Shown here: positions 28,891 through 63,221 of the stretch, piece after piece
Numbering within the stretch: the first letter of the stretch is position 1
How the letters are laid out: the number at the start of each line of letters is the position of its first letter
Assembly: GCA_973895155.1 (NCBI GenBank)
Contig: OZ316896.1
Coordinates: forward strand, 20,652,152 to 20,716,151
Source of the DNA: Marsupella aquatica
Taxonomy: Eukaryota > Plantae > Marchantiophyta
DNA: 64,000 bases
Reading direction: 5' to 3'
Program-made: the position numbers and the translations under genes
Notes under the pieces: generated by a model
Databases searched by the model: none
Told to the model about the DNA's origin: nothing
The model's input: only the letters and a program-made list of their open reading frames with translations

Positions 28891-31800
28891 AGGAGCAGTT
28901 TGGGGTCTCATCTGAGTTTGAAGGTTTGGATGGACATCCCACCCAAGCTTATGACTCCATTGAGATCAATAGTGTAAGACTCAAGCATTTCTCACGAAAC
29001 CCCAAATGAGATAGCTTTTCTTTCTCATGATTGGAGCCAAACAGACTTCAGTAGCAGTTTGATCTTGCATTGCAGGATAGATTGCAAGTTGTGCCAAAAT
29101 CATATTTGGGTAGCAGCATACCTGCTAAAGAAGATCCCTCCTATCTCAGTCTTGATGCAGGTTAACACTCCCGTGGGAATGACCTGATACCCAGAGAGCA
29201 TACCAAAGGTCTACACCAATCTTTCCCAGAAAAAATCCATTTATGGAACATGAAGGAAACAGAATGCAGACCATGGAAGTCCATAAAGGAACACCCAAAG
29301 AGCTCAAACAGGCAGAGAGCTGGAAACCCATGTTTCAAAGTAACTGCTGAAGAGCCTACAACAATTTGAAGAGCAAAAGATCTGGGGAAGTGGTGCTCAT
29401 TTACTCAAGATACTAATTGCAAATGTTAGACCATGCCTACTTTGGGATTTGGTAATCAAAAAGAAAACTTCATCTTAAATAAATAGAGTGTCATCTTCAA
29501 GCCTTCTCAATTTCTTTTATTATACTGAGGTCCTGGGCACAGGAACTATGGAGCGAAACACCCCCAAAATGAGGGCTAGCTTAACTTTTGAGGGGCTATT
29601 GTTGCCCATGATGCCCTCACAAAAGGGCATTAATAAACTTAAGGCCCAGAAGATTTTTCACTTTTACTATTTTGAGTAAAAGCGATTCATTAACCCGCTA
29701 TCTAAATCTGTCCTGTGCATATTCTTTGTAAAAATACAAATTAAAAACTACAAAGAGAAAATAACAAAGGCCAGTAAGTTTGTATATTGGATAGCCTCAC
29801 TTGGAATAATCTTCCTTAAAGCATTGTCAATGCCTTTGACAGCCTTGATAGGCACAAGGGCGTGCACAGTTCTTTTTTTTCTTTTTAATAGGGAACTACG
29901 CCCAAAAAACTTTACTCCGACAAGGCAGAGCGAATACACCGAGCACTGCCCGAGAGAAGGAGGCAACCAGAAAAAAGGAAACAATTCTTTGAGGCAATTC
30001 ACAAGAACAACCAGACTTTTGTGCTGCCATTTTCCCATAGGAATCCACCGGACACCCAAGCCAAAAGACCAGAAAGAAAGCAACGGCTATGGGTAGACTA
30101 AAATCAATGTTTAAAGATCGACAAGCATAAATGTCTCAGCTGAAACCTAGGATGTCCTCTAAGTATGACGTGGTCTTAAAAATAGATGAGATGATATGAC
30201 ACACAAGCACACGCATACAAAAAACCAAGGACCAACTTCAGTCCAACTAGGGTGGGTAGACTTTCACACGAAGCGGCCCCATGTCATTTTGTAGATGGAA
30301 CTTTGGCCAAAGACCATGAATCTACTGTGGAGATTGAGTGGGAGATTGAGAGATACGATGGAAAATGCAGACTGCTGCCTCAACTCATTTGTAAAGTGCC
30401 CTTAACAAGACTTTGACCTTAAGAACTAGTCTCAGGCCTACACTAGGAGCTGAGCGCCCTCCACTCAGGATAGGAAGCACCTCCAGCTAATGTCCTGAGA
30501 ATGCCCTCCTCCCTAGGGCTTTACCTTATACTAAGAACATTTCTTCTTATTATATTCTCAAGGTGACAGACTTGTTCTTTCTGGTTTTTGTTTTTGGGTG
30601 GGAAGGGAACCTCATCAAAGAGTCAAGGTTGCATGACCGCTCAACGAGTGACTGGGTGGAAAATCCTTAGTCAAGCAGGCCTATTACATAGAATAAGAAT
30701 GACCGACCAAAATGGCTTGTTAATTTCTGGGGGAGGTCACTATATGCCGTCATCCCCACCACCTGTGACATTTATTAGGTCTTAAACAACCTTAAACTAC
30801 AATGTTATTTTTACTGAAATGTTTTACCCCTCTTAATTTGGAGCATTTTAAAAATTGGTTTTGAAAACCCTATTTCTTTGTAAGTCCTGAGTGATACATG
30901 GAAAGGTTTTAAATGACACCTCCTCCCCCAGGGTTAGTTGCTGTTTGTGTTTGACAAAATCTTAAAAACTTGGGAATTTGAACACTCCATAATTTAAACA
31001 CAAATGTTCTTATAAACGAATTGTCTTTCGAGAATCTACAATACTCATTTCCCACATTATACAATTACATGTACGAAAGAGCAAACTTGGTTTTTAAACC
31101 GCCACTAGCCACAACAAAAACATGATGGAACCAGGTTCTTAACTCTAGTGCATTTGCACACCTTTTTGGCTCCGGTCAGCTACAGCCTGGTCCTGCTAGT
31201 GTTGCGGACTGCGCGACTGTTCCTATGCTAATGTTGCGGAGGGCTAATTGTTCCTAAAGTCTTTAGCTGCTGTATCTAGTGTGCACCGCATTGACTTGCA
31301 TACCAACTGTCTGAACACCGACTGTATGGTCCGTTAACACTGTTCCTTGTGCATCTCAGTGAGCCTTACTCTTTTGGGTTCTCTATCGGCAGCACATAAT
31401 ATTTTGTTTTGTATGCTGAATTCCTCCTCCACAACAAGGGAGAGAGAGCTGGACACAAAGTGGGCTCTCAACTCACCAAAATAAAAGAAGAAACAATTCC
31501 TAGTGGCTATCCCAATCCTGGGCTGTCAGAAGCTAACAATGCTTGTAGCATTCACAAATTACTCGGTGTTACTCATTCAAGGAGCTTGTATTGAGTCTGG
31601 ACACTCTATGTTGCTTTAGTTCTTTTTGGGGAGCTGTTACCGAGTTGTGTGTAGCTCAATGCTGCCAAATCCTGCAAAACCTGTTAATTAAGTTTGTGTT
31701 ACCAGGTTTAGACGTTCTCTCAGAATGTCTACGGGCAGAGAATTCTCAGCAAGGCCCTAGCTATACTCGATCATGTTTGTATGAGTTTCAACCTTAAATT

Positions 31801-32599
31801 GCTGCGGAACAATAGTTCTCAACTCTCGCCGCTCAAAAAGGACAGAATCTCTTTTCCAGCTTGGGATACTATTTTGACTCCCCATCCTGGTTCAAGACAT
31901 TCTTGCATGCGTATCGGTGTCATCTCATTTGTTTGTGGCAGGGGGCAATCTATGGCTCAAAATGTAGGGCCCAAAATGTAGATCTTGGTGATGTATATAT
32001 TCTGCAAAAATCACATGTGAAAATAGTTCATCTTTCTTAGAAGTCCTATGATGGAAGTGAGTGGGTCAGCCTGGAGGGTAGGTCTACTGTCCATCTAGGC
32101 AAATGAATGATGACCCGTTAAGATGCAAATAGAACCCATTAGGGCAGGCCCACTTTTGTAGTGGCAGCTGTGGTCTAAGCCACATTTGGAAAATAAGCTT
32201 GTTTTGTTGTTTTTGTTACAATAATGTTTGCCTCATCTCCACATGTTTAAAAAAAAATTAATTTTTTTGGTGGAAATACGTGTTGATTAGAAAAGGCACT
32301 GCGGCTAAGACCAGCGTTGCAGACATCGGAAAATAAGCTTGTGTGGTGGGCATCACTTAGGCATGATTGCAAACATTTGTCAAATATGAACTGTCCCCTA
32401 CAGCACTCTATATGGTATTTTCTTGGTACCCACCCTACTTTTTCTTTTTCTTTTGTCTTGAAAGGAAATAAGGAAGAACACTTCCTAGACTCTCTCTCCA
32501 CCAGGATAGTGACATATAGGGAACCCATTTCAGGGTAAACACAGTTTTCGAATTACACAAAGTGGACTTGGAATTCAATCACGTAATTTCTATTTTATA

Positions 32600-33330
32600 T
32601 TTGAAGTCACCTGTATAACTAGCATCAAGGAAGGGGAGTAGGTATCTTGGATGTGTTAGTTGACCAATCTGTCACCAGGGCATCTGTAGTTAGCAGATTG
32701 ATCCACGTGACCTTCGTGAGCATATTTTTAATGGGGACTTTACAAGAACTCAGAGAGTGGTCCTTTTTTTCCCCTATCTCTGAGATGCAATTGAAGCCAT
32801 TCAAATGTGGGAACCGGCCAACTTTCACTACAAATGAACTTGGAGGCATAATCTGGTAAAACCATTACCAATCCTAGTCACCTGCTAGTTGGTCCTTGTT
32901 TTTGAAGATGTGGCCAAGCTTTTTAATCAAATACTTAGACTAATTCTTGAGGTTCTAAATAATTAACCACTTCTCCATATTCAAGAGACTGATTTATTTT
33001 CTCCAAATTTGACAATTATTGGCTCAGACCATAAAACTTAGTGTAAGCAATGGACCTCATGTTTGCAATGGGTGTGACCATTTGTACCCCAAGTTTTTGT
33101 AAATCCCCCTAAGCTCACACATTCTGCTTTAACAGATCCACAACTACTTTTAAGGGAACAAACCAAAATTGCCTGGCTAGAGTTGCAGCAGCAATTACCG
33201 CTGTGATCTTGTTGAACATGCTAGTTTAGGTGGAATCAACATCACCTAGAATACCATCCCATGTCTTGACCTTGAAGAAAATACACAAATTCTAACTTGT
33301 AGTAGTTTGTAAATGAAATACATATTGGGC
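32600..33330 (-). mobile_element. Probable highly degenerate LINE (APE endonuclease) remnant adjacent to the MULE insertion
   Basis: The minus strand gives broken motifs in the expected APE order (VFFKVK ~ FLQETK, QAILV, FYG, NGFNCISEIGEK ~ GDFN..EK), interrupted by stops and frameshifts. Confidence 0.3.
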
Positions 33331-33338
33331 TGCAAAGA

Positions 33339-33623
33339 ATTCACAACGAGGGGCAAGATCGAGGCACATTAAGGCCTCGATCGTACTAGTCAGGGCAGCG
33401 TTGGGGTTGTTTGGGCGATGCGAGGGTGACATGTAGAGGCTGCCCAGAGAGCTCCGCTGCACCTAAACAACAATGGTCCTGTCCATTGCCTTTCGGCCCT
33501 GTCCCTCGCTGCAGTCCTGTCGCGATCCCCCCGCACCCCGTTGCTTTACGCCCGTCACGCGAAACACCCGTCGATGGGACTGTATTTTGCTGTCGCCCAT
33601 CGGCAACTAAATTGAGCTGTATT
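33339..33623 (+). repeat. Left TIR (285 bp)
   Basis: Reverse complement of 43762-44084 apart from a few substitutions and two insertions in the right copy. Contains the hairpin GATCGAGGC-N8-GCCTCGATC (33357-33382). Confidence 0.95.
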
Positions 33624-33856
33624 CACCTACTCTCTAGTGTATAAGCTTGGGCTACTATTTTGAATTGAGGACTACGCATTCAAACCTGGCAATTCAGGCG
33701 CGATAATGTTTCCAATTAGTAAATGGCGCTCGTTTTTCTGTGAGAGACAACCCAAGGATCAGGATTGTAATGCTTTCCACTACCAATTCAGGGATTGGGC
33801 TACGAGCAAAGTCAAATTCCTAGTTTACAATCACGTTTCACAACTGGGATGCAGAA

Positions 33857-36800
33857 ATGAACTTGCAGGTGTTGAGGTCAATCTTCCCATCGTTTGTGCA
33901 AGGATCCTCCACTTTGAGCACAAAAGCACATTCCCAGGATGTGCATGCAATCAGCAGCACAACGCAGGCGGAGGTATTACAAGTACTGAATGACAATGGG
34001 GAAATTATTGGATTGGGTAGTTTACAGGGTAAGTTCTGTAAAATGGGTTTGGATGACGACGCACAGAATGAAGATGTCAAGAATGGGTGTGACAATCTCC
34101 CGGATAAGGACGATGAAAGAAGGGTGATTTCAATAAGGAATCTTGGAGTCAGAATGATCGGCCCATACCGGACCTAAAGAAGTGCTTCAACGAGAGCAAT
34201 AAATGTGACAAAATTCAATACCCTCCTCCTGGCGAATTTGATGCAAGCGTCTTGCAATGGTTTGGGAGTAGGGCAGACTCTTCATGGATTCCTAAACATA
34301 GGTTGAATGACTTCATTTGGGGAGAAAATATGAGTGATTCCTTCCATACACAGTTTTCAGTGCGAAGGTCCGCTGATCATAAGATTAATGGGGCAAGACC
34401 TCTTGAGAAGAAAGTTATTTGGTATAACTGTTGTTTTGGGCCCGAAGATAAGCAACATTGGAAGAATGTTGTCGGCAGCCACAAAGTTCCACAGAACTTG
34501 AAGTCGAAAGAAGGGGGTGTGTACTTAAAAAAGAAAACGATCTTAGGTAAACACAAAGAAAGTAGTCCCCATGCAAACTCACGTTCTGCTAATTTCTGAC
34601 ATTTTCGTTGCAGAAGTAGCTTCACACGATTCGCGAACAGTGTCTTTGCCATACTCTGTTCATGTTGTGAATGGTACCGAACAAATGCAGTGTATTTGCC
34701 CATATTTTGCATGTTAGGTCCTGCAAATCGCATCTGACGACACGCTTTTCTAACCAATCATATACATGTCAGGGCACAGCATCAAGCGAGGCTGTAGGTG
34801 TAGCTTCACTGTCAGCCATTTTGTACAGCGCAAAGATGCTCTGTTGATAAGATTGTTACATAGGGACCACGAGGACAAACACGGGCAAACATGCCATGGC
34901 TTGAATGATACTTCTGCATATGCTTCTAACTGTCACATAGCTCCACGTATTTTGATGAAACTCAGGGCTAAAATAGACCGATATTTGAGAGCTGGGTTGT
35001 CAGCAAAGGCCATAATCAGAGCACACTTTGACGAGGTTGCTGTGAAATGGCAAAATGAGCATCCGGAGTCGGATGCCGATGTCATCTTTAGTAGAGACAT
35101 GCAGCTGAAACCTAAAGATATATGGACTATTCGGGAAGCAATGCGCAGGAGACAACCCTTTTATACCACTGACGATGCAGCTAGCATTCAAAATTGGGTG
35201 CATCAGAATGACGGGAATGTACTCCTTTACCAGCCACAAATGAAACTCGAGAACCAACCATTCATTCTAGCCTGGTCAACAGATTGGCAAAAAAAGCAAT
35301 TGGCTACGCTGGGACATGACAATGCAGTTGGCTTCGATGCAACATTTGGCACTAACCACTGCGGGGTACAAACTCAGAGTCCCTTACAAAAGTTTGACTT
35401 CCAACTTGTAGACGCGCATTTTTGTTGGCTGAATTTAGACGCTCCTTTTTTTGGCTGAATTTTTATTTCGTGTCATGTTATCATTTGATGTTCATTTCTC
35501 GTATCATTGAGCCTGCGCAGTTCCCCTTCTACACAATTGTTGTGTTCGACAAATTCCAGAATGCGATCCCTGTCGTTTGTGCCATCCTTCAAAGGTATTT
35601 AGCAGTGCATGTTATAGCGGTATTGTCAGCAGTGAAGGGCGTTGCAGACACTACAAGAAAGGAATTGGGCCACCCTGGCCCATGGAAGCCCAATTGCTGG
35701 ATCATCGATGTTGCAGACGAAGAGCAAATCGCCATCAGGTAAATCCAAAGAATGCTTGTTTGCGTGACTATGGACCGGCTGCCTACTTCTCACATGAGGT
35801 ATTCATTTTCAATCTAGCGTATTCTTGCAATTGCACCCTCACATGTACGTGTTAACCTGCATTTGTACAGCAATGTGTTCCCAAATGTGCCGATCACGTT
35901 CTGTAGCTGGCACGTAAGAAGGGCTTGGACCAAGAATATTATCGGGAAGGTGTTATGCCCCTTTGCAAAGGCCCACATTAATGCAGACCTCGGGGCATTG
36001 ATGTACTCTAATGGAATAGGTTTGTTCCTCCATTGATTGTTACGCTCCACTTCAAATCTGAAATTGTGCATGTTGCAATGATTAATTGTCAATTACTAAT
36101 CCGTGTTCATGCAGATCTCACGGCCGAATCTGAGGTCTTTATGGAGAGGTGGAAGGAGACTCAACCTACCTTTGTGGCATACTACAAAAGAGAATGGCAT
36201 GCCAAAGTCAATCGGTGGACTGTAAATTTCAGACAGTTCATACATGCGAATCAAAACACAAATGGAGGAATCAAGAGGTAGCACCACACTCTGAAGGTGG
36301 AACTGAAGGCCGATAAGAGCAACATCAGTGGCAGGTCCATCCCATGGCTCATTGAGAAGCTTAAAGCCATTGAGAATCACTACTGGTGTATGTCCGCCGA
36401 TAAGTTTCAAGGCAGGCTTAGGAATCGGACTGTAGAGCAACACATACACAAATGCATGAACCGAGCCAAGCTCATCCCGGATCATTTTGTCACACTATTT
36501 GAATGTGGGTCAACAAAGTGTGCTTCGGTGAAAAGCATGTCAGAAAAAATTGCTACATTGAAGGAGCACCTGGTTACAGATTGGAACACCGATTCATGCT
36601 CATGTACGTGCGGATATTCAATGAAGGGCAATGCATGCAAGCACCAGGTATTTGCAACTTCATGACTCCTATTTCATAGTCCAGGACAAATTCAGCCTCA
36701 TAATGTTAGCACTAGTGAGGTTGTCGTTCGTAAATTACAGTAACACTTTAGCAGTAGTGAGGCTGTCTCTCGTAAATTACAATACCACAAGTTCATCGTT

Positions 36801-37906
36801 TTTCCACAGATCAAGGTTCTATTGATGACACAAACCATGACAGAATTGGATCTTCTCACCCAGCTTGGTTCAAAGATGAGTACGTTCTGCGGAGGGCTTG
36901 ATGTGCACATGAAGGTGCAAACTGGGGAGTTCCAGTCCATTAACGAACTTGCAAACGTCACGCTTCAATATGATGATGACGAATTGTGGGATGAAGAATC
37001 GCCTGACCATGATTGCCTCCCTATTTCCCCTCCATTGGATGAGTTTGAAAGTGTTTTGAAGAAGGCATATGACACCGTATCTTATAAACCATCCCTTGCA
37101 ACTCAAGCTCTGAAAGAATTGAAGGCGTGGACTGAGTCACTGCTGACTCGGGAAGCGCAGCAGAATGTGGGCAGGCTAGAACCGGATCCAAGTTCATCGG
37201 AAACTTTGCTCCGAAATCCTGAGTCAGATGTGTCAACAATGCGAAAACTTGGTTGGGTGGACAAGCTTATGAGAGGCCCGCAAAAGAGGAAAGGGAACCA
37301 TGATACAGTTGAAGTAAAGAAGCAACTCACTACCTTTACTGCCCCTGAACGACTGGACATTAAGAAGAAGGGAAAAGTGCTTTCCTTCCAGGGAAAATTT
37401 GACAAGCTTGCAGTGGACGCCCTACAAGAATTGCTGAATTCTGTAAAGGAGAACACTTCACCCGACACATCACCAACACAATGTAAGTTTCTATATTATT
37501 GCTTATATAATGGGTCAATTTTGTAAAGTGCAACAATGCTGCCATGGCTGCCATTGTGACCACAACTAATGTTTCCATGTTCATTGTAGGGTGCCTCGGA
37601 ACTCCGACTTTGCAAACCACTTCACGGTCTAAGGCACCGTTCACAGCCTTATCAAAGGACCGTGCAAAGTCCAACACAGATGTTCCTGCACGTCACACAG
37701 GATGCCCAAGGAAGTCGAGGGCTGCCCCAACATATCCACTCAATGCCGTGAAGGACGGATGCTCTCAATCGGGTGTATTGCGTGAACCCCTCACTCAATT
37801 GCAAGCGCAAGTGATTGGCAACATTCACATCGGATCGAGTCAAGCTTGGGCTATGTCACCAAACTTTACTGACCTACTAAATGCATTCTCAGAGGGAGCA
37901 AAATAG
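33857..37906 (+). pseudogene. MULE DDE transposase with SWIM zinc finger (At4g13970/At1g60560-like), inactivated
   Basis: Exons ~33857-34546, 34773-35365, 35521-35738, 35871-36019, 36115-36647, 36810-37482 and 37590-37906. Motifs IQYPPPGEF, WIPKHRLNDFIWGE, YNCCFGPED, KRGCRCSF, H..G..CHG, FDATFGTN (D1), WIIDVADEE (D2), CSWH, SWIM CTCGYSMKGNACKH. Lesions: frameshift ~34116, catalytic E position reads K (AAG 36273), TAG at 36279 in place of W. Confidence 0.92.
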
Positions 37907-38731
37907 AAGAATACTGGCCACACTTCACCAGAAGCATGCAACATTGTTTGTATAACAGATTAGAACATGACAGTTGTGGATATACTTGATGGTGAGAACG
38001 TGCCAATTGCGGTCGTGCCCCCTAGTGATGAAAGATTCGGCACATGTGCCGTCTACCTCATTGTGAAATGGAATGTGAAATGGTAAACAATTACGCGCTC
38101 GTCATGAAGCTGGCCATGTATTTGCGTCTCAATTCTACTTTTGCCAAAAACCCGAGTTCACCCCTGAGCAGGCTTACTCGGAAGGAGTCAATTAAGTATG
38201 TTGCATGAATACTTGTTTCATGACATTTAGGCGTGGACCGTGTTTTGTCTTACTAACCCACAGAAGTACTTCACAATGTGTGAGGGTAATATCCAAACGT
38301 GCTCGTGGGTTCAATTCTAACTTGACGATTTTGTACGTGGTGTAGCATTACAAATAACCAATGCAGTTGAGTGAGTTAATGTAAGTTGAGAGCGTGACCA
38401 TTGCCATTCACAAAGTACAAAAGTGTGCACAATAAACAATTGCCATGAGCCATTCACATAGTACTCACTGTGCACAATAAACAATCAACAATTCCGACGA
38501 AGTCACTATGCTTTACATATATGTGGGGAATTAAATCCAGTAGTTACAATAAGGTACCATCACGAGTGGCATCTGTTACACATTGTCTGCACAAAAATTG
38601 CGCCAATTTATCGTTCAAAGACGGTTTACACGATCAGAAACTGAAGCTATCCATTTCCCAAGGTCATCCATGTTTTTTTCCACAATTGTTGGCTCCTTCG
38701 CAATATACCTGTCTAGACGCTTATTCACGTC

Positions 38732-41700
38732 CTATAAACTCCTATTAAAGGACTCATACATTAGCTGTAGCGGCGACTTAGTGTCTTCACCGTGCAGACC
38801 CAGGTTAAGGTCCACATCAAGTGTACCTTGAAGTACATGAGCCTCTTTAGCATTGTTTGCTGCACCTGCCACTTGAGATTCGATGATGGTGCGGGGACAC
38901 AATGGGAATAAATTAAGAACCTTATCTGCATTCAGAGTATGATTGTTGCCATTGACACAAGGTAGGCTGCTATCTAAACTATGTACAAAAATATTACTAT
39001 CAATTGTGTCCACACAAGCTCCAAATTCACCTTTCTGAGTGTCACTACTGTCAATTGGCGGCTGTGTATCAACACACACTAGATCATCAAAAGGTGTTGC
39101 GTCTTTAAACATTTCTGACATATCCTGCGTTTGCAAAATGTACTGAGGAACTTCTAAAGGGGAAGGTCCACCCAAATTGCACACAAGATCTGCATATAGG
39201 CAATCCCGAGGTGAGTCATTTGAATCACCCACTCCCGGGGGACAAAATCCTTTGTCGTCAAGAAGCACGGGCGCTTTGTCTTGGGACAAAGAGCACAGTC
39301 CCATGACAGCATCGAAGACCTTGCCTTGTTCTTCCTCTAGTGAGATGTCATGCCATTGATAATCTGCCAATGGCTCACGCAAATCCAATGTTTGACTTGT
39401 TCAGCATTGCAAATGTTGGCCAACCCTAAACTTCCATCTGTGTGAATTGACCACACTTGCGGTTGTGTCGCCTTCGATAGAGACCCATTGCTTCCAATAT
39501 CATCTAGGAGGGGAGTTTGATCTTGTGATAGGGTTATTCCTGCAAATGATCCATGTCCAAACAACATTTGCGTTGAAGTAAGATCATGTAAGCTTGTTAA
39601 AGTGGGAGGTGGGTCCTGCGGTTGCACTTCGTCCGATTCCGAGACATAATTGTTTGCTCCATCTTCTGCTGCAAAAACTTCATCATCTGGTGCGAGAGCT
39701 TCTGTGGGATGAAGTTGCTTCGTTTGGTAATACTCTGCTCGCTCGCGCTCCTGCTCATCGAGCGTCTGCAGAAACAATTTTGTTGTAGGGTCGTCCGGGA
39801 GTTGCCACTGAACATCACATTCATCAAAAACAGGAAGACCTTTACAGTGAACAGGTTTGTGAGAAGCGTGTCTCCTTTCTTACATCCACAAAATCATTCA
39901 TGCACACAGGAATGGATGCCGGTTCACCAGAATTTGGCCCCACATTTGTTGTTGTGTGCTGGGATGGCTTCTTCCGTGAAACCAATTTGTTCAATGGGAC
40001 ACATTTCTTTTTCCTCTTGGGTTTTGGCTTTGTTCTCCGCTCCTTAGGCGGAGCACCATCATCTGAAGTGTCAATCCAAACACTATTCATTGCGGCCTGG
40101 ACATGTACAAGCAATAAATAGAAATAAACAACCGATACATTCATTCCATAAACAAGCTGCAATGGCAAACAAAGTTCAAGTGCAAACTAAAAACCACAGC
40201 AGGTACAAACACATACACAAACATGAAACATGCATCGAACTCAAATGAGTTCTAATGTTGTACTTACTTGTTGTTTGGCCTCTGCCTCGCATGAGTGCCA
40301 TGTATGCACTAACCAAATTAGGTAGAGTCGTGGCACAACTATTGGGTTTTGCTTTTTGTTTCCACGCTTGGTACTCTTGCTCTGCCTTGTTCTCATACAC
40401 ACTCCACCCGTGGTTGTTCTCCCACATGATGGCCTCTCGATTCTTTGTAAGCCATGAAATAGCGTGCTGACAAATACTCTTTCTGTGCAGGAGCAATGCA
40501 GTGCTTAAGTGCTCAGAGTCAGTCGGAGTGACTGTGGTATTGAATATTGAGCCAAGGTGACCAATAGAGGATTTTAAGGCATGAAGGTCTTCACTGGCCA
40601 AATGGGAATGAGAACCTTCTTCAATTTCCTGCGACAATTTGTTCGTCCATGAACCAACAGCGAAAGTAGAAGGGCAATAAGAGATTAGACGTAGCAACTT
40701 CTTGAAATTTGTTGTCTTCACAAGGCTGTTCCAAGGATCATAACCAAGACTGGGCATCACGAACTTGACTACAGCAAGGAACAGGCCTTCTTCTCCCACA
40801 ATTGGACGGGGATGTGCGAATTGGTTCTCTTCAAATTTTGTGACCAACCGTTTGTAAATACATGCCCTGCATGTGGCATATCATGTGCATGTCAGTACAC
40901 AATGAATAGTACATTGTGACTTGCATATAGGCATTTAGCTAATTGAATTGCTTGAGTGCAAATTTACCTCATCCTGTACTTGGCTTGACTCCATCTAGCT
41001 CGCATGGAACCCCTGGCTTCATAGTACATGAATTGCAAACAACTTCACCTGGCTGCTTCCTCCTCCTTGCATTGTATTGTTGCCGTCTTTGCTCATCATC
41101 GCTATCTAGGGCATACAGGGATACCAAAGTCCCGGACAAAATTAGACCATGTTGTTTGAACACATGGTTTCCAAAAGTTCTCTCCGTTTTGAAGACTCGG
41201 TTTTTGCAAGGTGCAACCTTGCAGACCACTGCATTGGCATACAATGTGTAATGATCTCCCTCTATTGCAGCGCCATGTTTGGACTTAACTGCTATTGCCT
41301 GCGTTTGAACAGGTAGTGGATAGGATTCAGCATATTGAAAGCAAATGATGCCAAAATTCACTTAGTTCCATTCAATGTTACCCTCACCTTCTGTGCGTTA
41401 ACTCTGAATGTAGTATGTTTTGGAGGTGTTGCATCCTTTGAATCGCTATTGGAAGCTTCATCGGAGCTGTCACTGCCAGAACTAAATACTCTCTTACGGG
41501 GTGCTGCATAATTTCATCGCTATCAGAGCCTTCTTGAGAGCCCGTGGTCATAGACTCCTTTGCAGGCACATTTCTTTGGACCTTCTTAGCTCTTGCGGTT
41601 GGGAGTCTTGACCTCGTAACCCGAACATGCTCTTCAATATGTGCATCCTTTGACATTGTTTGTCTAGTCACCCGTCGAGGAGGTAACTTACCAGATTTTG

Positions 41701-42201
41701 TGGTGGACTTTGGGGGCGGTAAATTTACAGGCACATGACCTGATTGCCTTCTTGGTGCCTCGTTCAATTCATCAGGGTCTGACTCTGTTTCGGGTTCCTT
41801 CAAGGACAAACCCAGTTTCTTTGGCTGCAATGTGCGCCCGGTTGTGGGCGGTTTCGCCCACTGCCCGTCGTCATGACACTGCGAGGGCTCTGTAGCGCCA
41901 TCGTTCCCCTTTAGAGACCTTTGTCGATAGAGTAGAAGCTGCACCGCATGACATGCATCAAATAGTAAGGTCATGCCTCTAAAACACACTTCGTCCGAGA
42001 CTTGAAAGAAAGAACACAAAAAATATAAAATAATGCAGCACAGGCTCTACGACCTTACCCTAATTTGGTTTAAAGCATGCTTCTTATATGTAGACAACAT
42101 ACGGGGCTTCATACAAACAACATAGAACATAATGGGAATCACCTACCATTACCCTAATCTGGCTTAGTAATGCTTAGTACCTGCTTCTTAGTTCTAGCCA
42201 T
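38732..42201 (-). CDS. MULE accessory protein: predicted H3-tail-like N-terminus (MARTKKQ), basic disordered region, C2H2 zinc finger, helical domain, acidic C-terminus; partly decayed
   Basis: Predicted exons 42201-42181, 41938-41498, 41298-40968, 40866-40268, ~40096-39884 and ~39766-38732. C2H2 motif CKVAPCKNRVFKTERTFGNHVFKQH; NLS-like RRTKPKPKRKKK. Several junctions need 1-2 nt frameshifts, so the gene model is approximate. Confidence 0.65.
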
Positions 42202-42587
42202 ATACTTGTGCAAAAATGGCGTATAGCAAACGTTGGTCCTGTTGTAAGTAGACCGATGTGTGTCAGTCTACACGAGGCCCGGTCAAAGATACTGCAATCC
42301 TTATCCTGCGTCACTCACTCATGAAACCAGGTTAGGATTGAACCAAAGATTAGAGCATATGTATTTGTAAATGAAACATGTGCGAGAAATTATGCATGAT
42401 ACATGGACAAGAATGAGTAAGGTGACTTCGAAGACTCAGATGATCAAAAGCGCCTAAACGCAATTCAACGTTGGATTCATTTGCACGCATTAACAACGGC
42501 CTTGTTTACATTGTGGGCAGTCCTAGTAAAGTTGGAAACATTCGTCACACACAAAAGCTGGTACTGCTATACATCTCAGTGGAAACT

Positions 42588-43448
42588 CTAATCTTTGTTG
42601 CCCCGAGAGGAGTACATGTCTAGCGATGCACTGAAAGCATTGGCTAGCCTCTTTACTACGGACACCATGTTTCCGGTGTCCTCTAATTTGTCACTTGCAC
42701 AATCATCATCTACTGCACTAATAGCTTCGGAAGTGGAAGTGTGAGTTGTCGACGATGTGCTTGTCTTATAATGCGATCCTGCCTTGGAATTTGACGCTGG
42801 CGGAGTGATAGGGACAACATTCACAACGATCCTTGGTGGAGTGGTATGAACAATAGCAATCGGGACTGGGGCGGGAGAAGGGACCCTTGATGAGGGGCTC
42901 CATTGGGCACCTCGCCTTGATGTCAACGATGGCTGCCAAACACAACTGTGCTGCAACACACTGTTGTTGGAAATGATGTTGAGTTCTTGAACGTGAACTA
43001 CTCTGCGTTGCAGCCTAAAAGTGACATTGCAGACAGGTAAATCCTTTGTAAAGTCGTGGACTCGCTGGAATTGATCATGGGGTTCCATAGCTGCCAATGT
43101 AGGGGCAGACATGTCCAACAGAGAAGCAGCTGAGTCCCAAATTGAAGCACAAAGTGCAGGCTGCCCAAAATTTGTCTGTAAAGTGTCATCTGACACAATG
43201 ACCTCAAAGCGAAACATATGAACATAGTTACCATTCTCTGCCGAATCATGGAGACAGTGCTTGTGATTCGGCCCATCAATATACACCTTACACATTCCAA
43301 TCCGAGTCCTCTCAGTGCATCCATGATACGTAAATTTCCTTGGGAAAGGATTTCGAGCTACAAAATTGAGGACTCGGACGTGCATTGGGCCCACAATTCG
43401 GGTCTCTACATCGATCACAGCACGGTAGACGTTGCTCAAGGTGACCAT
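42588..43448 (-). CDS. RPA1 (RPA70) C-terminal-like zinc-ribbon OB-fold protein with Ser/Thr/Pro-rich tail
   Basis: Uninterrupted 286-aa ORF from ATG 43448. Pattern YHGC-x8-C-x11-CLH..MFRFEVIVSDDT..ASIWDSAASLLDMSAPTL parallels RPA1 DBD-C (YxAC..C..C..C..RY.l...i.D.Tg...t.F...ae.llG.sA.el). Confidence 0.7.
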   Translation of the reverse strand: MVTLSNVYRAVIDVETRIVGPMHVRVLNFVARNPFPRKFTYHGCTERTRIGMCKVYIDGPNHKHCLHDSAENGNYVHMFRFEVIVSDDTLQTNFGQPALCASIWDSAASLLDMSAPTLAAMEPHDQFQRVHDFTKDLPVCNVTFRLQRRVVHVQELNIISNNSVLQHSCVWQPSLTSRRGAQWSPSSRVPSPAPVPIAIVHTTPPRIVVNVVPITPPASNSKAGSHYKTSTSSTTHTSTSEAISAVDDDCASDKLEDTGNMVSVVKRLANAFSASLDMYSSRGNKD

Positions 43449-43761
43449 TTTTTCTCCCACAACAATGACAGATTGGAATGAGACAACTTGCCTGAATTGG
43501 TCTTAAGCACTGCACCGTGCACGTTCGCCCTGCGCAAACGAAACAACCTTCAGAATTGTGTCGATCAGAATGATTGGCAACAATGTAGCAGGGCTGAACC
43601 CGATTCGATGCAAAGCATAGCTGATCTCCGCCACCCTAAACCCTTCTGTATCGACCCTAAAATGTAAGGCGACAAAGCAGCTGGAATGCCAATCTCATGT
43701 GCAGATACCCTTTGAGGCACATTAAGGCCTCAATGTACGTCGAGTACATTTGATTCATTGC

Positions 43762-44084
43762 AATACAGCTCAATTTAGTTGCCGATGGGCGACAGCAAAA
43801 TACAGTCCCATCGACGGGTGTTTTGCGTGACGGGCGTAAAGCGACGGGGTGCGGGGGATTTGCGACGGGGTGCGGGGGGATCGCGACGGGACTGTGGCAA
43901 GGGACAGGGCCGAAAGGCAATGGACAGGACCATCGTTGTTTAGGTGCAGCGGAGCCCTCTGGGCAGCCTCTACGTGTCACCCTCGCATCGCCCAAACAAC
44001 CCCAACGCTGCCCATCTGCTAACGCTGCCCTGACTAGTACGATCGAGGCCTTAATGTGCCTCGATCTTGCCCCTCGTCGTGAAT
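43762..44084 (-). repeat. Right TIR (323 bp)
   Basis: Matches the left TIR plus a 21-bp duplication (gcgacggggtgcgggggattt) and a 17-bp insertion duplicating aacgctgccc. Confidence 0.95.
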
Positions 44085-44558
44085 TGCAAAGATGCTATGG
44101 TAATACATAACCCATCTGCAGACTGTCAGAACCCTCTCCCAAACGGAGATGAGAATGGTGATCATACTCTCATATTGTCAGCAAAAGCAAAGCTTACTTT
44201 GCTGGCTATATCGCAAACCTGCATGATAACTTAAAAACATATCTTTGTGAAAAACCTCTTTCACAATTGCACCACTTTCTCCCAGGACTGTCTTCCAATT
44301 ACCTGTTAGAGGGAGGGAAAGCCCAAGTTGCGAAGATGACCTTCTACTGATGGGTGGATCATCTTTTGGTTTTGAGGCAACATTGAGGGTTGGGAAACTC
44401 AAAGTTATGGATCATCCAGTCCCTTTTCAGGTGTTTCAAGGGAAATATCAATGCTATTGAGTAGAAATATTTTGTTGAAAAGGATCCAATCCAGGCTTCA
44501 CAATCCTATCTGAGAAAAAATATCTTAACAAGAATCCTATTCGAGCCGGCACTGGTGA

Positions 44559-45087
44559 TATAGCATGCTCATCTTGGAACATGCTTGATTTTTTGTCTTG
44601 TAGTGATTTGAAAGTAAATAAAATATGAGAGCATAACTAGAAGGATAAAATAATGTAAGTAAAGTGCTTGCCAAGAAAAGCATAGTGACAAGTGAAAACT
44701 ACAGTCAAGTTTTATGACACAACTATGCTATGATTTGTGCACTTATCTGAATAAAAACCATAAACTTAGGAAAGAAAGACATGAGGAGAACTTAAGACAC
44801 TATGTGTTCAAGTTATTTAGAATCATTTCTCTCACTCATGAGAATACTTTGTTCAAGTGGTGGACCAGTTGGTTCATCTCTAAGAGATCACAAACTTTAA
44901 AAGCTATAAGGGGCTTGTCAAAATAAGTTCAAAATACTCTAGAATACCTAAAATTAAAGGGGTCTAAAAATTGAATAAAAAATGTATATGATACCAAGAC
45001 TATCCCTTGATAAAGCACATGGAAATAAAACTACATGACACACAAAATATGAATAGACAAAATCTGAAAGGTAAATTCACCATATAG
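44559..45087 (+). repeat. Dispersed AT-rich repeat family C, copy 1 (~530 bp; probable non-autonomous TE)
   Basis: Colinear with 62739-63221 from tatagcatgctcatc.tggaacatgcttg to gaaaggt.aattcaccatatag. Confidence 0.85.
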
Positions 45088-47799
45088 TGATGGGACTTTT
45101 CATTCAGGGAATCCTTGAATTAACAAAATATATGACGGAAGGCGCTTTAAGCATTCAGCCCCAAAAGCTGAATAGGCTTTGTTGTCTATTTAACACAGCT
45201 GCATGAAGCCAGGCCAAATGGGAGGTTGTTGTTTGATCCTACTACAGTACATTGAAAAAAGAAATTTTGTATGGTTGTTGACGTGTCAGTTGTCGAAAAA
45301 TGATTTGAGATTTTTTGAGCATTAATTTTGTGAAAGTTGCTTTACCTTTTTCAGAGCGGGGAAATTGTAAAAAGAAGACAGATTCTTAAAGCGTACACGA
45401 CGACTGTAGTAAGTTGGTCTTTGGGTGACTTGGTCACTAAAGTCTCAGGATTATTATTTGTCCCATGATTTCTTCCACGTCACTGTGATGGGCCACTGGT
45501 AAAAAACAAAGATTGGCCACTTAGTCACTGAGATTGGCCACTTGTGGAAAAAAAATGTATCTTAGGATATTTTAAGGAGAACATTTTAACGCAGCACCTG
45601 CCGACCAGTGTCACCTGCCCAAAATACAACAAGAAACCCTGCTACTATCTCTTTTTTACCTAAGAGTCTTTTCCCCTTGATGTCTGGTAGGGCCTCTCTA
45701 CTATATGCAGGGCATCCACCTCCTGCCTGAGGGCACAAACAAAGATAGGATTAATTTTATAAGTAAAAGTTTAGAGGAGCAAGAAGGCGTGAAGCAAAGC
45801 CCAAGAAACTCCTCAGGGATACAATGTGCCAAGTGAGGTACTTGGTTGTGATTGATATCTCATCACTTTCTCCCAATGTGCTTGTCCTCTGCTCTTGAAG
45901 GGCATTTCTCTTATTCCTCCATTCAGCTTCATTGAGACTTGAGATTAATTTGACGCCTAGACTTAGTGAGCCTTTCTGTGGGACCCTGTGTGGGATTGGT
46001 TATCTAAATCTAAACACTATATAATATCCAATCCCGCTCTGTCATTTTCCCTGGCCATTTTCATGAAATGTTATTGGAAATATGTTGACATTCTATCCTA
46101 GCCATGAGATGGACCCAAAGGTGCCATTGTGCACCATTGCTACTCCAACCCATCAGATTCCCTGCAGCTTGCACGCTTTTTGAAATTCAGTTGTCAGGTC
46201 GACTTGTTGACTCCTAGCAACGTCAAATTGTTTTCAGACCATCTCATATGCTTCACAACACTTCTCTTCAACATTACTTACTGTCTGTCAACAATTCTGT
46301 ACAATTCATGGGCTTGGGCTCGTCTTACCACATAAGCCCAAAGAGAAGCTAGAGTAAGGACTATAGTCTAGAGTGAAGCCTACCCTGACTCTTGCTAAGT
46401 TAGGGCAGAAACCTATTATCAAAGGGTAAAAGTAACTTCTTTTGGTTCTCACTAAAGGTAGACATTTAAGCTAGTCTATCAAACGGGTAACCATTCATGA
46501 CCTTCTGTGCTAACTTGGTAAAGCATTTATGTTGGAACACAAACCAGGTCCTCAATTTGCCACTTTGTACCCGTTGCACATGGAATTCAGGCTCCGCCTC
46601 ACATGCTAACCCCCCATCAGTCTCTATCCCATTGCTATGTGGTTGACAGAGTTACTCATCATCCTGATAGAATGATGGCTCCTTAAGAAGAGTTAAATTC
46701 AGCTGAAATTTCATCTAGGGTCTTTGTTGCTCAATGTAGATCCAGGGAAGGTAGACAAAGTACATGATTGTCTGAACTCACTCCAAAATGAAGAGAAAGT
46801 TGTTTCAACCTTCCCCATATATTTATTGAATCATCCCTTTTCAATGTATCTCAACTGGTTAAAGCCCAGGTTAAAGCTCCCCAAGATGGATACAAAACTT
46901 TATCACTTGAGCCACTCTAGTCAAACACATGAGCCAAACCCAACTTGCTCATGGGCGGGTTACCCTTTTAAAACAAGGATTGAACAACAAAATAGAAAGC
47001 TTGCCCCCATGGTTATGTGGTGATGCTTCATCTTGGACAATGTTAGAATATGTTGATAAATTGTAAGAATGGACTTTACCAATGTCAAAAGTGAAGCTCA
47101 ACGATTTTCTGGGTTGTACTTTGTTTTGAGTGAAGCCTTCACTTCACAAGGAAATTGTTGATAAGACTTCATGGCACAGTCTTGGTAGTGAATATAGTAG
47201 TAGCAATTTGGGTGTTCCCTTTTGGTTGTGGGGGACCCCTTGGCTGGTTGGGCCCCTTAGGTTTTTTCTGGGGATATTTCCCTCCCCTTCTTGGGTTGCT
47301 TTGCCTTTGGGACCTTGTCTATCCATTTGGCAGTTTTATTCTTTTGCACTATAATATATATATTTGGGGATCCTGTCCCAAGTTGAATGCTTCTTGTACT
47401 TTGGTAGTGTGATTTTATTAACTCCTGTAATAAAGGGTTGCGCCAAAAATTGCCGTGGTCATTGTTCAAAAATGCAGGGCCATTTTGCATGAGAAAATGC
47501 AAACAGGAAAAACCAGAAGGAATAAAGCCTGAAAACATTGTTCGAGTGCCAGGAGGAGCCAGGCCCAACTTGCAAGGAGGGAGGGAGCAGCCAGGCCTGA
47601 CTCGCAACTAGGGAGCACTGACTCCCAACGAGGGGGCTGCGACCAGGGAGCGAGGAGGGGAGGGAGCGACTCACGAGGAGAGGAGGGAGTGACGACCCGA
47701 CGGCTGCCTCTTGCCAACGAACCTGACCTGCACCCTGCCTTGCCCGACTGCCCTCGCTCGACAACATTCATTTACTTATCGACCATTTTGTACTTAACT

Positions 47800-47990
47800 T
47801 CATCTTTTTCATTAATGATATCTTTTCTCTTAATGGTATTTTGGGCAACACAACATCTTTTATCTTAATGACATCTTGGACAACATGACATCTTTAATTT
47901 TTTTTAACGACATGACATCGTTTCTCTTAACGACATTTTGGGCCACACGATATCTTTATTCTCCACGACATCTTTACTCTCCACGACATC
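47800..47990. repeat. Degenerate acgacatcttt tandem array
   Basis: Repeated (a/g)acatcttt units, e.g. ctccacgacatctttactctccacgacatc. Confidence 0.6.
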
Positions 47991-50231
47991 CGGTATTGAG
48001 CTAGTCTTAAATAATAGATACATTCTTTAAAAACATTATACAGCTCTGCACAGGTCTCAAAAGGACTTTGATGCTTTTTGGTTTTGGTAGTGGGTTTTAT
48101 ATTAAATACACTGAGAAAAATGTTATAGAAGTATGCACAGCTCTGCAAGGGCGACACACCCCAAGTGGATCTATCTAATGACTGCTGGTTTCATGACTGG
48201 TGTTGATGACCATGGTAGTACTGCACTCATTGCATTGTAACATACTTGCAAAAAACGTGTATTGATGGGCTGGTCTTCTCTGCACTGCATGCCCTGGAGC
48301 TTCTTATTAATTGCAACAAAATGTATGTCGATTCCCCATCTTAAAACAAAAAACAATTGACCACCTACAGTCTATGACTGACAATACTCTTTTTTTTCCT
48401 TGGCAGATTCTGCGGATATATTCTTACCAAAGATGTGGGCCCAAATCTTTGGACCAAATTGGCCACCTTTTTTAATTCCTTTAAGAGTTGGCCAGGTCCG
48501 CCTATTTCTTGAATCTTAGAAGATCTAAGAGTATATAATAATGTGTCAGATACTTTTTCTCCCTAGCAAACCATACTTATAAGCGAAATGCCTGAAAAAG
48601 TAAACTAAGATTCTTTTTGTGGGCTGGACAAAATGAAAACGGCCATCCTTAAATGTAAGGAAGCAAGTAAAATAAAATTTCACCATTCAGAATTACAAAC
48701 CAAGTTACCAATAGTCATTCTGCCCAGAGACTTGACACTTTTCCTTACCACATAAGTACTTAGTCCCACACAAAAACAGACCCCAAAATGGTGGCCCTGA
48801 AAAACAGAGAGAATGTGGAAGTCAATATTTAAATATGACACACTCACTTAAAGCAGCACCTAGTTACAGCTCCCCACTTCTTTTAGTTTTTTTAGTTTTT
48901 AATTTTTAAGGAGGAAATCTGTAAAACCCCGCATAAAGGAAGGCAAGCCAGTTCTAACATTTGAATCCAAGACCTACGAGTCCCAACTCAAGTGAGCAAC
49001 CATGCACACAGCCATGCCGGCTTCACAGCTCGCCAGTTTTCTTGGGGTCCCTACCCTGCCTCTCCTGACTTCCAATGCATCTTGCCTGCTTGCCCTTCCT
49101 AACATCACTTGTACGTTGTTCTGGCAGTGTGAAATGGTGCATGTCATTTGGTGGAAATTATCTGCACTGTCCCAGGATCGGATTTACATACTAAGCTCTC
49201 AACCTAGACATAAGTTAACACTGTTGACTAACTGAACCATATTGGGATTGCTCGGGCTACAACCAGCAAGCATGCAAAACAGAAGCCCGGTCTCTAAGGA
49301 CGCGAGTGGAGCAGTGTGCACAAGGCCAGACTATTACATCATACTCTAATTGAAATCACTCCTTTAATTGCTAGGGCATCTGAATTGATTAGCTGGGGTC
49401 TTTGTTGTTAGTACCTCGTTTTTGCCAGTGCTGGGGTCACCCTTACCATTTGGCAGTTGTGCTTAGCTTTTCTTTCGTGTAATTTTGTTTTTGGTTTTTG
49501 CTCACTCTTGGCCCTCCTGTCTGAAGGTGGCTTTGAGGACTTTAATTTGCAGTTTTGGTGTTTTGGCATCGGTTGTGGTGTGCCTGGCCCTTGGCTGGTA
49601 TTGTTTTGTGCCCCGCTGGTCATCACTATGGTGGTCAATTTAATAAATTACCAAGTTTCCACCAAAAAACACCAAAAAAAGAGGACACAAGTGGAGCAGT
49701 GTCATATGGGTCCTGACCCTGACAACACAACCATCATAAAAATGGATACCAAAACAGAAGGAGAGGGAGAGAGGAGTGCATCAATGCAAGCTGGACGGAG
49801 AGCCCTCTACTACATGCAATAGGACGCCAGCACCAGACACAGCGGAGGGAGTGCATCAGTGCGAGCCAAACCCTGAAGCCATCTGTGGATTTTTCCTGTC
49901 CATCAATGAATTAGGGGCATGTATAGTTTCATGTTGCCGGAAGAGCAACCCACTTTTTATCAGAGGTCAAGTTAAGACCTGCAGAGGAACATTAATTATA
50001 TATCACACTTAGTGCCAAAAAGCAAAAATGCTGAACCGGGAGACATGGTCCCAATGGCAAAGAGGCCCGGGAAAAAGGAAAGGGAAAACCCAAAAGACCA
50101 ACAGGTCCAACAAGCCTAAGGGTCCCCAACACCAACAAAGGAACAACATCAGAGACAAAACTCCAAGTGAACAAATAACCTACAATGAAGCTGAGAAGAC
50201 TAGCACCCTACTAGGCGGAGGATTGAAAAGT

Positions 50232-62738: not shown

Positions 62739-63221
62739 TATAGCATGCTCATCCTGGAACATGCTTGGAATTTTTGTTTTGTAGTGACTTGAAAGTAAAT
62801 AAAATATGAAAATATAACTAGAAAAATTGGTGCACAATTTGACCAATGAAAAGTACAATCAAGGATGCTACCATGTGTGCACTTAATTCAATGTCATGAA
62901 TGATACTTATTTCAATAAAAAAATCATAAACTTAGGAAAGAAAGACATGAGAGTAATTTAAGACACAATCAAAACCATTTCTCTCATTCATGAGAATGTT
63001 CAACTGGTGGAGCCGTTCATTTCATCTCTAATAAATCACAAACATTAAAGCTGCCAAAATAAGTTCAAAATACTTTAGATACTAAAAATTAGAGGGGTCC
63101 ATAAATTAATTAAAAATGTATATGATACCCAGGCGCCCCTTGATAAGGCACATTGAAATAAAAATATATGACATGAAAACTCTGAATAAGACAAAATGTG
63201 AAAGGTGAATTCACCATATAG
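62739..63221 (+). repeat. Dispersed repeat family C, copy 2
   Basis: Colinear with 44559-45087. Confidence 0.85.

Follow-up and report, generated by a model that had tools for sequence, protein, structure and literature searches.

The window analysed here comprises 64,000 nucleotides of the liverwort Marsupella aquatica (assembly GCA_973895155.1, contig OZ316896.1, positions 20,652,152 to 20,716,151 of the forward strand) and contains a dead and decayed Mutator DNA transposon of which related copies exist. The element is bounded by terminal inverted repeats (TIRs) and target site duplications (TSDs) and carries a transposase gene and two accessory genes, referred to as gene 2 and gene 3 (Table 1; all coordinates are those of the window). 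It very probably belongs to a real three-gene Mutator family, whose combination of accessory genes was not found in print. The best overall explanation, to which we give about an even chance, is a decayed Mutator copy whose accessory genes encode an anti-silencing zinc-finger protein (gene 3) and an OB protein binding single-stranded DNA (ssDNA; gene 2), two roles which we infer.

The boundaries of the element were defined by comparison of its ends. The TSD, TGCAAAGA, is the sole 8-bp direct repeat at the element ends, where no direct repeat of 9-12 bp was found. The two TIRs align with 273 matches and 10 mismatches, every one of them a transition, and with indels of 17 and 21 nt. MULEs (Mutator-like elements) are defined by long TIRs, often of hundreds of bp, and TSDs of 8-11 bp (PMC6446971), and both features are present in the element (283/321 bp; 8 bp). 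A 21-bp motif that sits in both TIRs occurs a third time in subterminal position and is a candidate transposase-binding site. Dense short-motif arrays like those of VANDAL elements were looked for, and only a few two-copy repeats and no 8-9-mer in more than four copies were found in the element; a second copy of the element is absent from the 64-kb window. The transposase is read on the plus strand inward from the left TIR, and genes 2 and 3 on the minus strand inward from the right TIR, so that exon models and strands confirm the convergent layout described in the initial annotation. The complete, TIR/TSD-bounded 10.7-kb element that had been claimed along with it stands as far as the structure is concerned (TIRs, 8-bp TSD), but not for the coding part, as both the transposase gene and gene 3 are broken.

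Once its six GT-AG introns are removed, the transposase gene reads from 34120 as a frame of 969 codons that a single internal stop interrupts. The spliced model exhibits, in Mutator order, the motifs D (FDATFG), D (IIDVAD), CxxH (CSWH) and NTNGG and a SWIM finger, which we take to represent the catalytic Asp/Glu sites, the CxxH after the second Asp and the zinc finger. The combination of DDE, CxxH after the second Asp and zinc finger that characterizes MULE transposases is hence found in the spliced model. The SWIM match in Pfam lies just under the cutoff (E 0.0016, 18.3 bits; cutoff 19.6), and the Pfam MULE domain was not matched by any single transposase exon in a scan performed exon by exon, the domain being split across three exons. 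In this copy, the gene carries a stop at 36279-81 and a Lys in place of the third catalytic Glu, and probably a further frame change near 34120-34175. Its N-terminal part (34200-34546) is presumably similar to the 'SWIM zinc finger family' proteins of plant hosts, of which At1g60560 is an example, and host proteins of this type may have been domesticated from the transposase lineage. A tandem duplication of 41 nt (85% identical) at 36706-36788 lies in transposase intron 5.

Related copies were sought in contigs of four sequencing runs from two studies, which contain 57-89% of the sampled words and were compared over 29001-48500; the results stem from the listed 32 of 8,633 pieces and, for gene 2, from 16 of 91 pieces and 40 of 214 variants. 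No RNA run was listed as containing the sampled words, which carries no information about expression. The contigs match the flanks of the element with zero differences. Among the pieces listed, the element is covered by near-identical ones (6 differences in 1,524 nt), while the transposase and gene 3 are also covered by pieces of 85-90% identity and gene 2 by pieces of 81-89% identity in both runs compared. Variants in all three genes are seen in contigs of all four runs. One diverged contig of 464 nt (51 differences) covers 43346-43795, thereby connecting the 5' end of gene 2 with the innermost 32 nt of the TIR on the right. The transposase stop at 36280 is missing from every contig covering the site in the four runs, all of which contain the Glu codon (36273), and indels in other contigs at 41509, 40289 and 39391-39430 coincide with three of the five frame changes of gene 3. 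Scans of metagenomes by pattern gave 31 matches and no relative, and those with an 18-nt TIR word gave 12 loci, all at chance level with at most 37 nt aligned.

The diverged copies of gene parts and the 19 relatives of gene 3 described below, 13 of them on 13 different contigs, argue against a one-off capture. A Pack-MULE-type event that picked up ordinary host genes, which then evolved neutrally, is largely refuted and by now barely credible: two of the three genes are indeed broken in this copy and a host donor gene may exist, but a full-length (though likewise broken) transposase gene is kept, both accessory genes are found in diverged copies, and the gene 3 relatives are dispersed, share on average 33% identity (102 pairs) and show no ordinary family in the shared region. 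Host cargo of high identity, named in the initial annotation as the finding that would speak for such a capture, was not encountered among the protein sets searched, the best gene 3 relatives being 24-53% identical. The distinct transposon family proposed there is supported by the diverged parts of all three genes and by the membership of gene 3 in an old, dispersed liverwort family.

This family emerged from a full HMMER search with gene 3 exon 4 among 1.84 billion representatives, which returned 19 relatives (best E 4.5e-38, 24-53% identity), namely 13 Calypogeia fissa proteins (among them CAM6122973.1, CAM6098397.1 and CAM6103829.1), whose contigs all differ in length, and 6 Logan proteins. 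The relatives are colinear with exons 3-5 (41277 to 39032), and one of them, P0003, crosses intron 3. Judged by these similarities, gene 3 belongs to an old and dispersed liverwort protein family, and the dispersal and divergence of its members fit transposon cargo. The spacing of the C2H2 finger is the same in P0003, which is 64% identical to gene 3 over 83 aa of this region (64-70% among the relatives), and a C2H2 pattern is also present in the relative P0011 (CAM6103829.1). The latter carries an N-terminal PLATZ domain (residues 64-136, Pfam E 4.9e-19) as well as a basic stretch loosely recalling the H3 tail, and may be a fusion or a variant accessory protein. In the region shared by gene 3 and its 19 relatives, Pfam lists no family at cutoff. 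AlphaFold, provided with an 18-row alignment led by P0003, yields a model with a mean predicted local distance difference test score (pLDDT) of 75.5 that contains a confident all-helical domain; between residues 91 and 270, the majority of 10-residue blocks exceed a pLDDT of 90. Foldseek found no match to this model in the PDB and a viral library at E 0.001, which is no proof of a new fold, and the best VIA hits (Z 7.8) were generic helical hairpins. Exon 2 gave no histone match among PDB sequences, the gene 3 profile reached only E 0.22 against the same set, a gene 3 exon had no usable match in the ESM Atlas, and an NCBIfam scan returned nothing relevant. Word-index protein searches with a transposase exon, a gene 3 exon and gene 2 also found no relatives; these are weak nulls, since this type of search missed the 19 gene 3 relatives obtained by full HMMER.

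The gene 3 model starts with a predicted 21-nt first exon that is joined in phase to exon 2 by a 242-nt intron. Its ARTK start equals what we take to be the N-terminus of histone H3, and the MARTK-type first-exon codon string occurs only once in the window. In simulations, such a string arose in 1 of 20,000 intervals of 649 nt and in 6 of 1,500 sequences of element size. Based on this gene model, we lean towards MARTK as the true start of gene 3; that the tip acts as an H3 mimic is less likely than not. The C2H2 protein with an H3-like start that had been described initially is thus recovered in the gene 3 model with both of its features. Within the same three-gene family, gene 3 could instead be a MURB-like transposition helper involved in insertion, target-site choice or self-regulation, with MARTK serving as a basic N-terminus or localisation signal whose likeness to H3 is coincidental. 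We regard this, the main rival explanation, as rather unlikely: the convergent layout resembles that of MuDR, in which mudrB is apparently needed for integration (PMC6446971), the H3 match stops after K4 and no gene 3 relative shows MARTK, but the string immediately precedes exon 2 and ends in a canonical, in-phase donor, at the low chance given above for the interval, and the C2H2 finger fits chromatin or DNA targeting.

Gene 2 retains an intact frame with a good ATG context. The encoded protein probably begins with an OB domain of the RPA70-C type (residues ~1-165) that includes a candidate zinc ribbon, for which Cys44, Cys53, His62 and Cys65 are candidate ligands; the domain is followed by a Ser/Thr/Pro-rich tail of low complexity (118 residues, 27% Ser/Thr, 9% Pro). 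In the ESM Atlas, the top match of the first 168 residues is Rep_fac-A_C (0.94; 200/256 features shared), and all ten of the best named matches fall in the same family or clan. Rep_fac-A_C is likewise the sole Pfam family listed for this 168-aa domain (residues 38-149 on model positions 15-117), with an E value of 0.15 that is far from the cutoff. Taken by sequence resemblance, gene 2 is likely an RPA70-C-like gene. Only about 315 bp separate the TIR from the ATG, at which the OB-like region begins, and leave no room for DBD-F, A and B; because a single DBD-C-like domain is present in the 286-aa frame and no DBD-F/A/B precedes it, gene 2 is not a whole RPA1 gene. The RPA-like ssDNA-binding gene of the initial annotation is consequently retained, with weak support, as a lone RPA70-C-like OB domain and dropped as an RPA1 gene. 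A search of PDB sequences gave 0 matches, and the AlphaFold model of the domain, predicted from a single sequence, is too poor for fold assignment (pLDDT 49), with nothing usable from Foldseek and VIA (best Z 4.4). The Foldseek comparison proposed at the outset was carried out on both accessory proteins, through this model and P0003, and gave no usable or significant match for either.

Selection on gene 2 was assessed from the listed variants, of which 29 are coding. Twelve of these are synonymous, as opposed to 23-29% expected (p 0.02-0.10), and the same variants read in the two wrong frames give 4/29 and 7/29. Moreover, 7 of the 8 listed coding pieces below 90% identity are free of gaps. This suggests purifying selection on gene 2, so that the anticipated ratio of nonsynonymous to synonymous substitution rates (dN/dS) below 1 is found as a weak and marginal signal. 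Another 24 coding variants from the wider contig comparison (6 synonymous) were excluded because many are common to all contigs at the site and thus probably include the decay of this copy itself.

RPA70-like genes occur in plant Helitrons, and gene 2 might accordingly be a piece of an RPA1-like gene that was captured from the host or from a Helitron and is largely or wholly without function, gene 3 alone being a true accessory gene. Its single OB domain, the stand-alone Rep_fac-A_C clusters that exist in Streptophyta (ESM Atlas) and the marginal selection signal would agree with such a passive capture, which is nevertheless improbable in view of the intact 286-aa frame with its good ATG context, the gap-free relatives of 81-87% identity and the diverged copy at the same place beside the TIR. 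The element also shows neither a hairpin-CTRR-T 3' end nor a helicase or HUH motif in six frames, which we take to be the traits of Helitrons. TTAGGGT-like words are found upstream of gene 2 (43633-43660) and in gene 3 intron 1, where they accompany a partial tandem duplication (42050-42190); these are presumably telo-box-like promoter elements or target motifs.

Several observations weigh against the explanation by two functional accessory genes in a transposon family. At the level of the family, none of the contigs listed joins the three genes together in a further copy, and the gene 3 relatives were compared as proteins, so that their link to a transposase is putative. The runs carry two organism labels, but a run of the second one reads across the left junction of this very insertion without a single difference; as the insertion and its flanks are identical under both, they do not count as independent evidence from separate species. 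Regarding gene 3, the likeness to H3 amounts to four residues (ARTK) and ends at K4, where KQLL follows; the motif was chosen after the fact, and other ATGs exist in the same 649-nt interval. MARTK is seen in 0/20 of the gene 3 relatives, although the models of nearly all of them are incomplete at the N-terminus; P0011 begins with PLATZ instead. As to gene 2, its ESM recognition of 2116 lies under the 2300 mark, the Pfam match reaches 12.3 of the 28.5 bits of the cutoff and is not listed for the full 304-aa frame, the implied dN/dS of about 0.5 is marginal and was obtained from the 29 coding ones of 40 listed variants (out of 214), and a frameshift disrupts one of the diverged copies.

If the two accessory genes do act as proposed, the family would have moved by cut-and-paste with the aid of two helper proteins. 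Each TIR would promote inward transcription, as in MuDR; since gene 2 stands between gene 3 and the right TIR, gene 3 would need an additional promoter or a shared transcript. The gene 3 protein would dock on element DNA via its C2H2 finger and helical domain, while removal of the Met would expose a free A-R-T-K end able to engage proteins that read or write the N-terminus of H3 and K4, either as a decoy or as a recruiter. Host silencing of the element would thereby be loosened, a VANC-like job performed by unrelated parts; anti-silencing factors do occur among the accessory products of MULEs (PMC5735166). The gene 2 protein would coat ssDNA at the excision break or at insertion gaps and favour template-directed gap repair, whereby the donor site would be restored and the copy number raised. 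In DDIAS, a single OB fold at the N-terminus suffices for ssDNA binding (10.1101/2025.09.09.675108), and we place the chance that gene 2 acts on transposition ssDNA slightly short of even. In its most specific form, the proposal comprises a transposon-encoded H3 mimic on a zinc-finger/helical protein that diverts H3-tail readers, plus a minimal RPA70-C-type binder that steers excision repair, and would amount to a second, VANC-independent invention of anti-silencing; in its entirety, this combination is unlikely.

Individual parts of the element recall several known systems. Gene 2 probably shares with the RPA70-like genes of plant Helitrons and with DBD-C of host RPA1 an OB domain of the RPA70-C type, including a candidate zinc ribbon, and in the former case also the location inside a transposon, but differs from both in its single domain with a low-complexity tail and in its placement within a TIR/TSD-bounded cut-and-paste element without Helitron ends. 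Mimics of the histone H3 tail are known, among them influenza NS1 and N-terminal VRTK-type motifs, and the short ARTK-like motif predicted here from the sequence resembles them; no report of an H3 tail mimic in a plant DNA transposon was found in the literature search. The OB fold of vertebrate DDIAS is reportedly Rep_fac-A_C-like. DDIAS, in which a single N-terminal OB fold binds ssDNA alone (10.1101/2025.09.09.675108), resembles gene 2 in architecture only, a likeness drawn without sequence comparison, and differs from it as a host repair factor of 998 aa.

Among Mutator elements, maize MuDR (mudrA/mudrB) has long TIRs, a DDE/SWIM transposase and an extra gene in opposite orientation (PMC6446971; PMC9168764). 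Unlike MuDR, the element described here contains two accessory genes as opposed to one, an 8-bp TSD and a length of 10.7 kb, MURB being set apart without direct sequence comparison. Three-gene MULEs are known in VANDAL, KIU and Abermu (PMC5735166; PMC13317346; PMC9168764). Arabidopsis VANDAL (VANA/VANB/VANC) and KIU/Kaonashi encode an anti-silencing accessory protein (PMC5735166; PMC13317346), the role proposed here for gene 3. However, VANDAL is described as non-TIR, and none of the Pfam families of VANC (DUF1985/DUF287) and KIU (Ulp1) is present in the gene 3 exons or the 19 relatives. Barley Abermu is a TIR MULE of >8 kb with three open reading frames (ORFs), all with Ka/Ks <1 and one of them antisense (PMC9168764). 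In contrast to the present element, it combines two sense ORFs with one antisense ORF, whose functions are unknown, and 'RPA' has 0 occurrences in the Abermu paper (PMC9168764). Table 1 of PMC6446971 names PMD, DUF, FAR1, SET, OTU and MutB among the additional motifs or ORFs of MULEs and contains no RPA/OB gene. In agreement with the initial annotation, which knew of no MULE with this gene set, the literature search found no report of it, Repbase and subscription journals being outside its scope.

Table 1. Features of the Mutator element and its genes (window coordinates).
Feature	Position	Strand	Remarks
Whole Mutator element	33339-44084		10,746 bp; TIR and TSD bounded
Left TSD (8 bp)	33331-33338		direct-repeat comparison of ends
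Right TSD (8 bp)	44085-44092		direct-repeat comparison of ends
Left TIR	33339-33621	+	283 bp; 273 matches and 10 transitions vs right TIR
Right TIR	43764-44084	-	321 bp; two internal duplications
21-bp motif, third copy (subterminal)	43714-43734		same motif in both TIRs
Mutator-type DDE transposase gene	33857-37906	+	about 1,050 aa; dead copy; probable start ATG 33857
Transposase introns	34547-34772, 35366-35520, 35739-35870, 36020-36114, 36648-36809, 37483-37589	+	all GT-AG
Gene 2 ORF	42588-43448	-	286 aa from ATG at 43448
Gene 3	38615-42201	-	about 990 aa; five exons, four GT-AG introns; dead copy
Gene 3 exons	42201-42181, 41938-41388, 41298-40968, 40866-40268, 40096-38615	-	
Gene 3 predicted first exon, 21 nt	42181-42201	-	MARTKKQ, then CAG/GTA donor
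Gene 3 C2H2 zinc finger	41150-41225 (approximate)	-	C-x4-C-x12-H-x4-H
Gene 3 conserved all-helical domain, ~220 aa	40268-41026	-	spans intron 40967-40867; no Pfam family
Gene 3 lesions	41509, 41030, 40289, 39860, 39400; 38734	-	frame changes near the first five positions; premature stop at the last

The flanks of the element (32800-33338 and 44093-44300) form, on the minus strand, a single decayed reading frame that continues from one side of the insertion to the other, and the element therefore probably landed in an older repeat. Further downstream, a repeat at 44558-45090 occurs in many flanking contexts in the runs and has a second copy at 62768-63211; it is likely a miniature inverted-repeat transposable element or another short repeat. 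Additional short repeats of high depth in the runs lie at 29120-29193 and 47764-47895. The region 4089-6892 encodes leucine-rich repeats of 23-24 aa and presumably represents a gene of the NBS-LRR type, and we take the window to contain TPR and other host genes as well. These genes indicate a land plant, and since every named relative of gene 3 is a liverwort protein, the host is most likely liverwort-like.

Anti-silencing factors encoded by transposons are known in only a few cases, and no role has been assigned to most accessory genes of Mutator elements. With this family, two candidates from a non-seed plant become open to testing: a zinc-finger/helical protein with a predicted H3 tip and a single domain of the RPA70-C type. 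Binding of ssDNA by gene 2, if real, would offer a handle on the gain in Mutator copy number through gap repair. Should the tip of gene 3 work as proposed, histone mimicry would be a strategy of plant transposons besides being a viral one.

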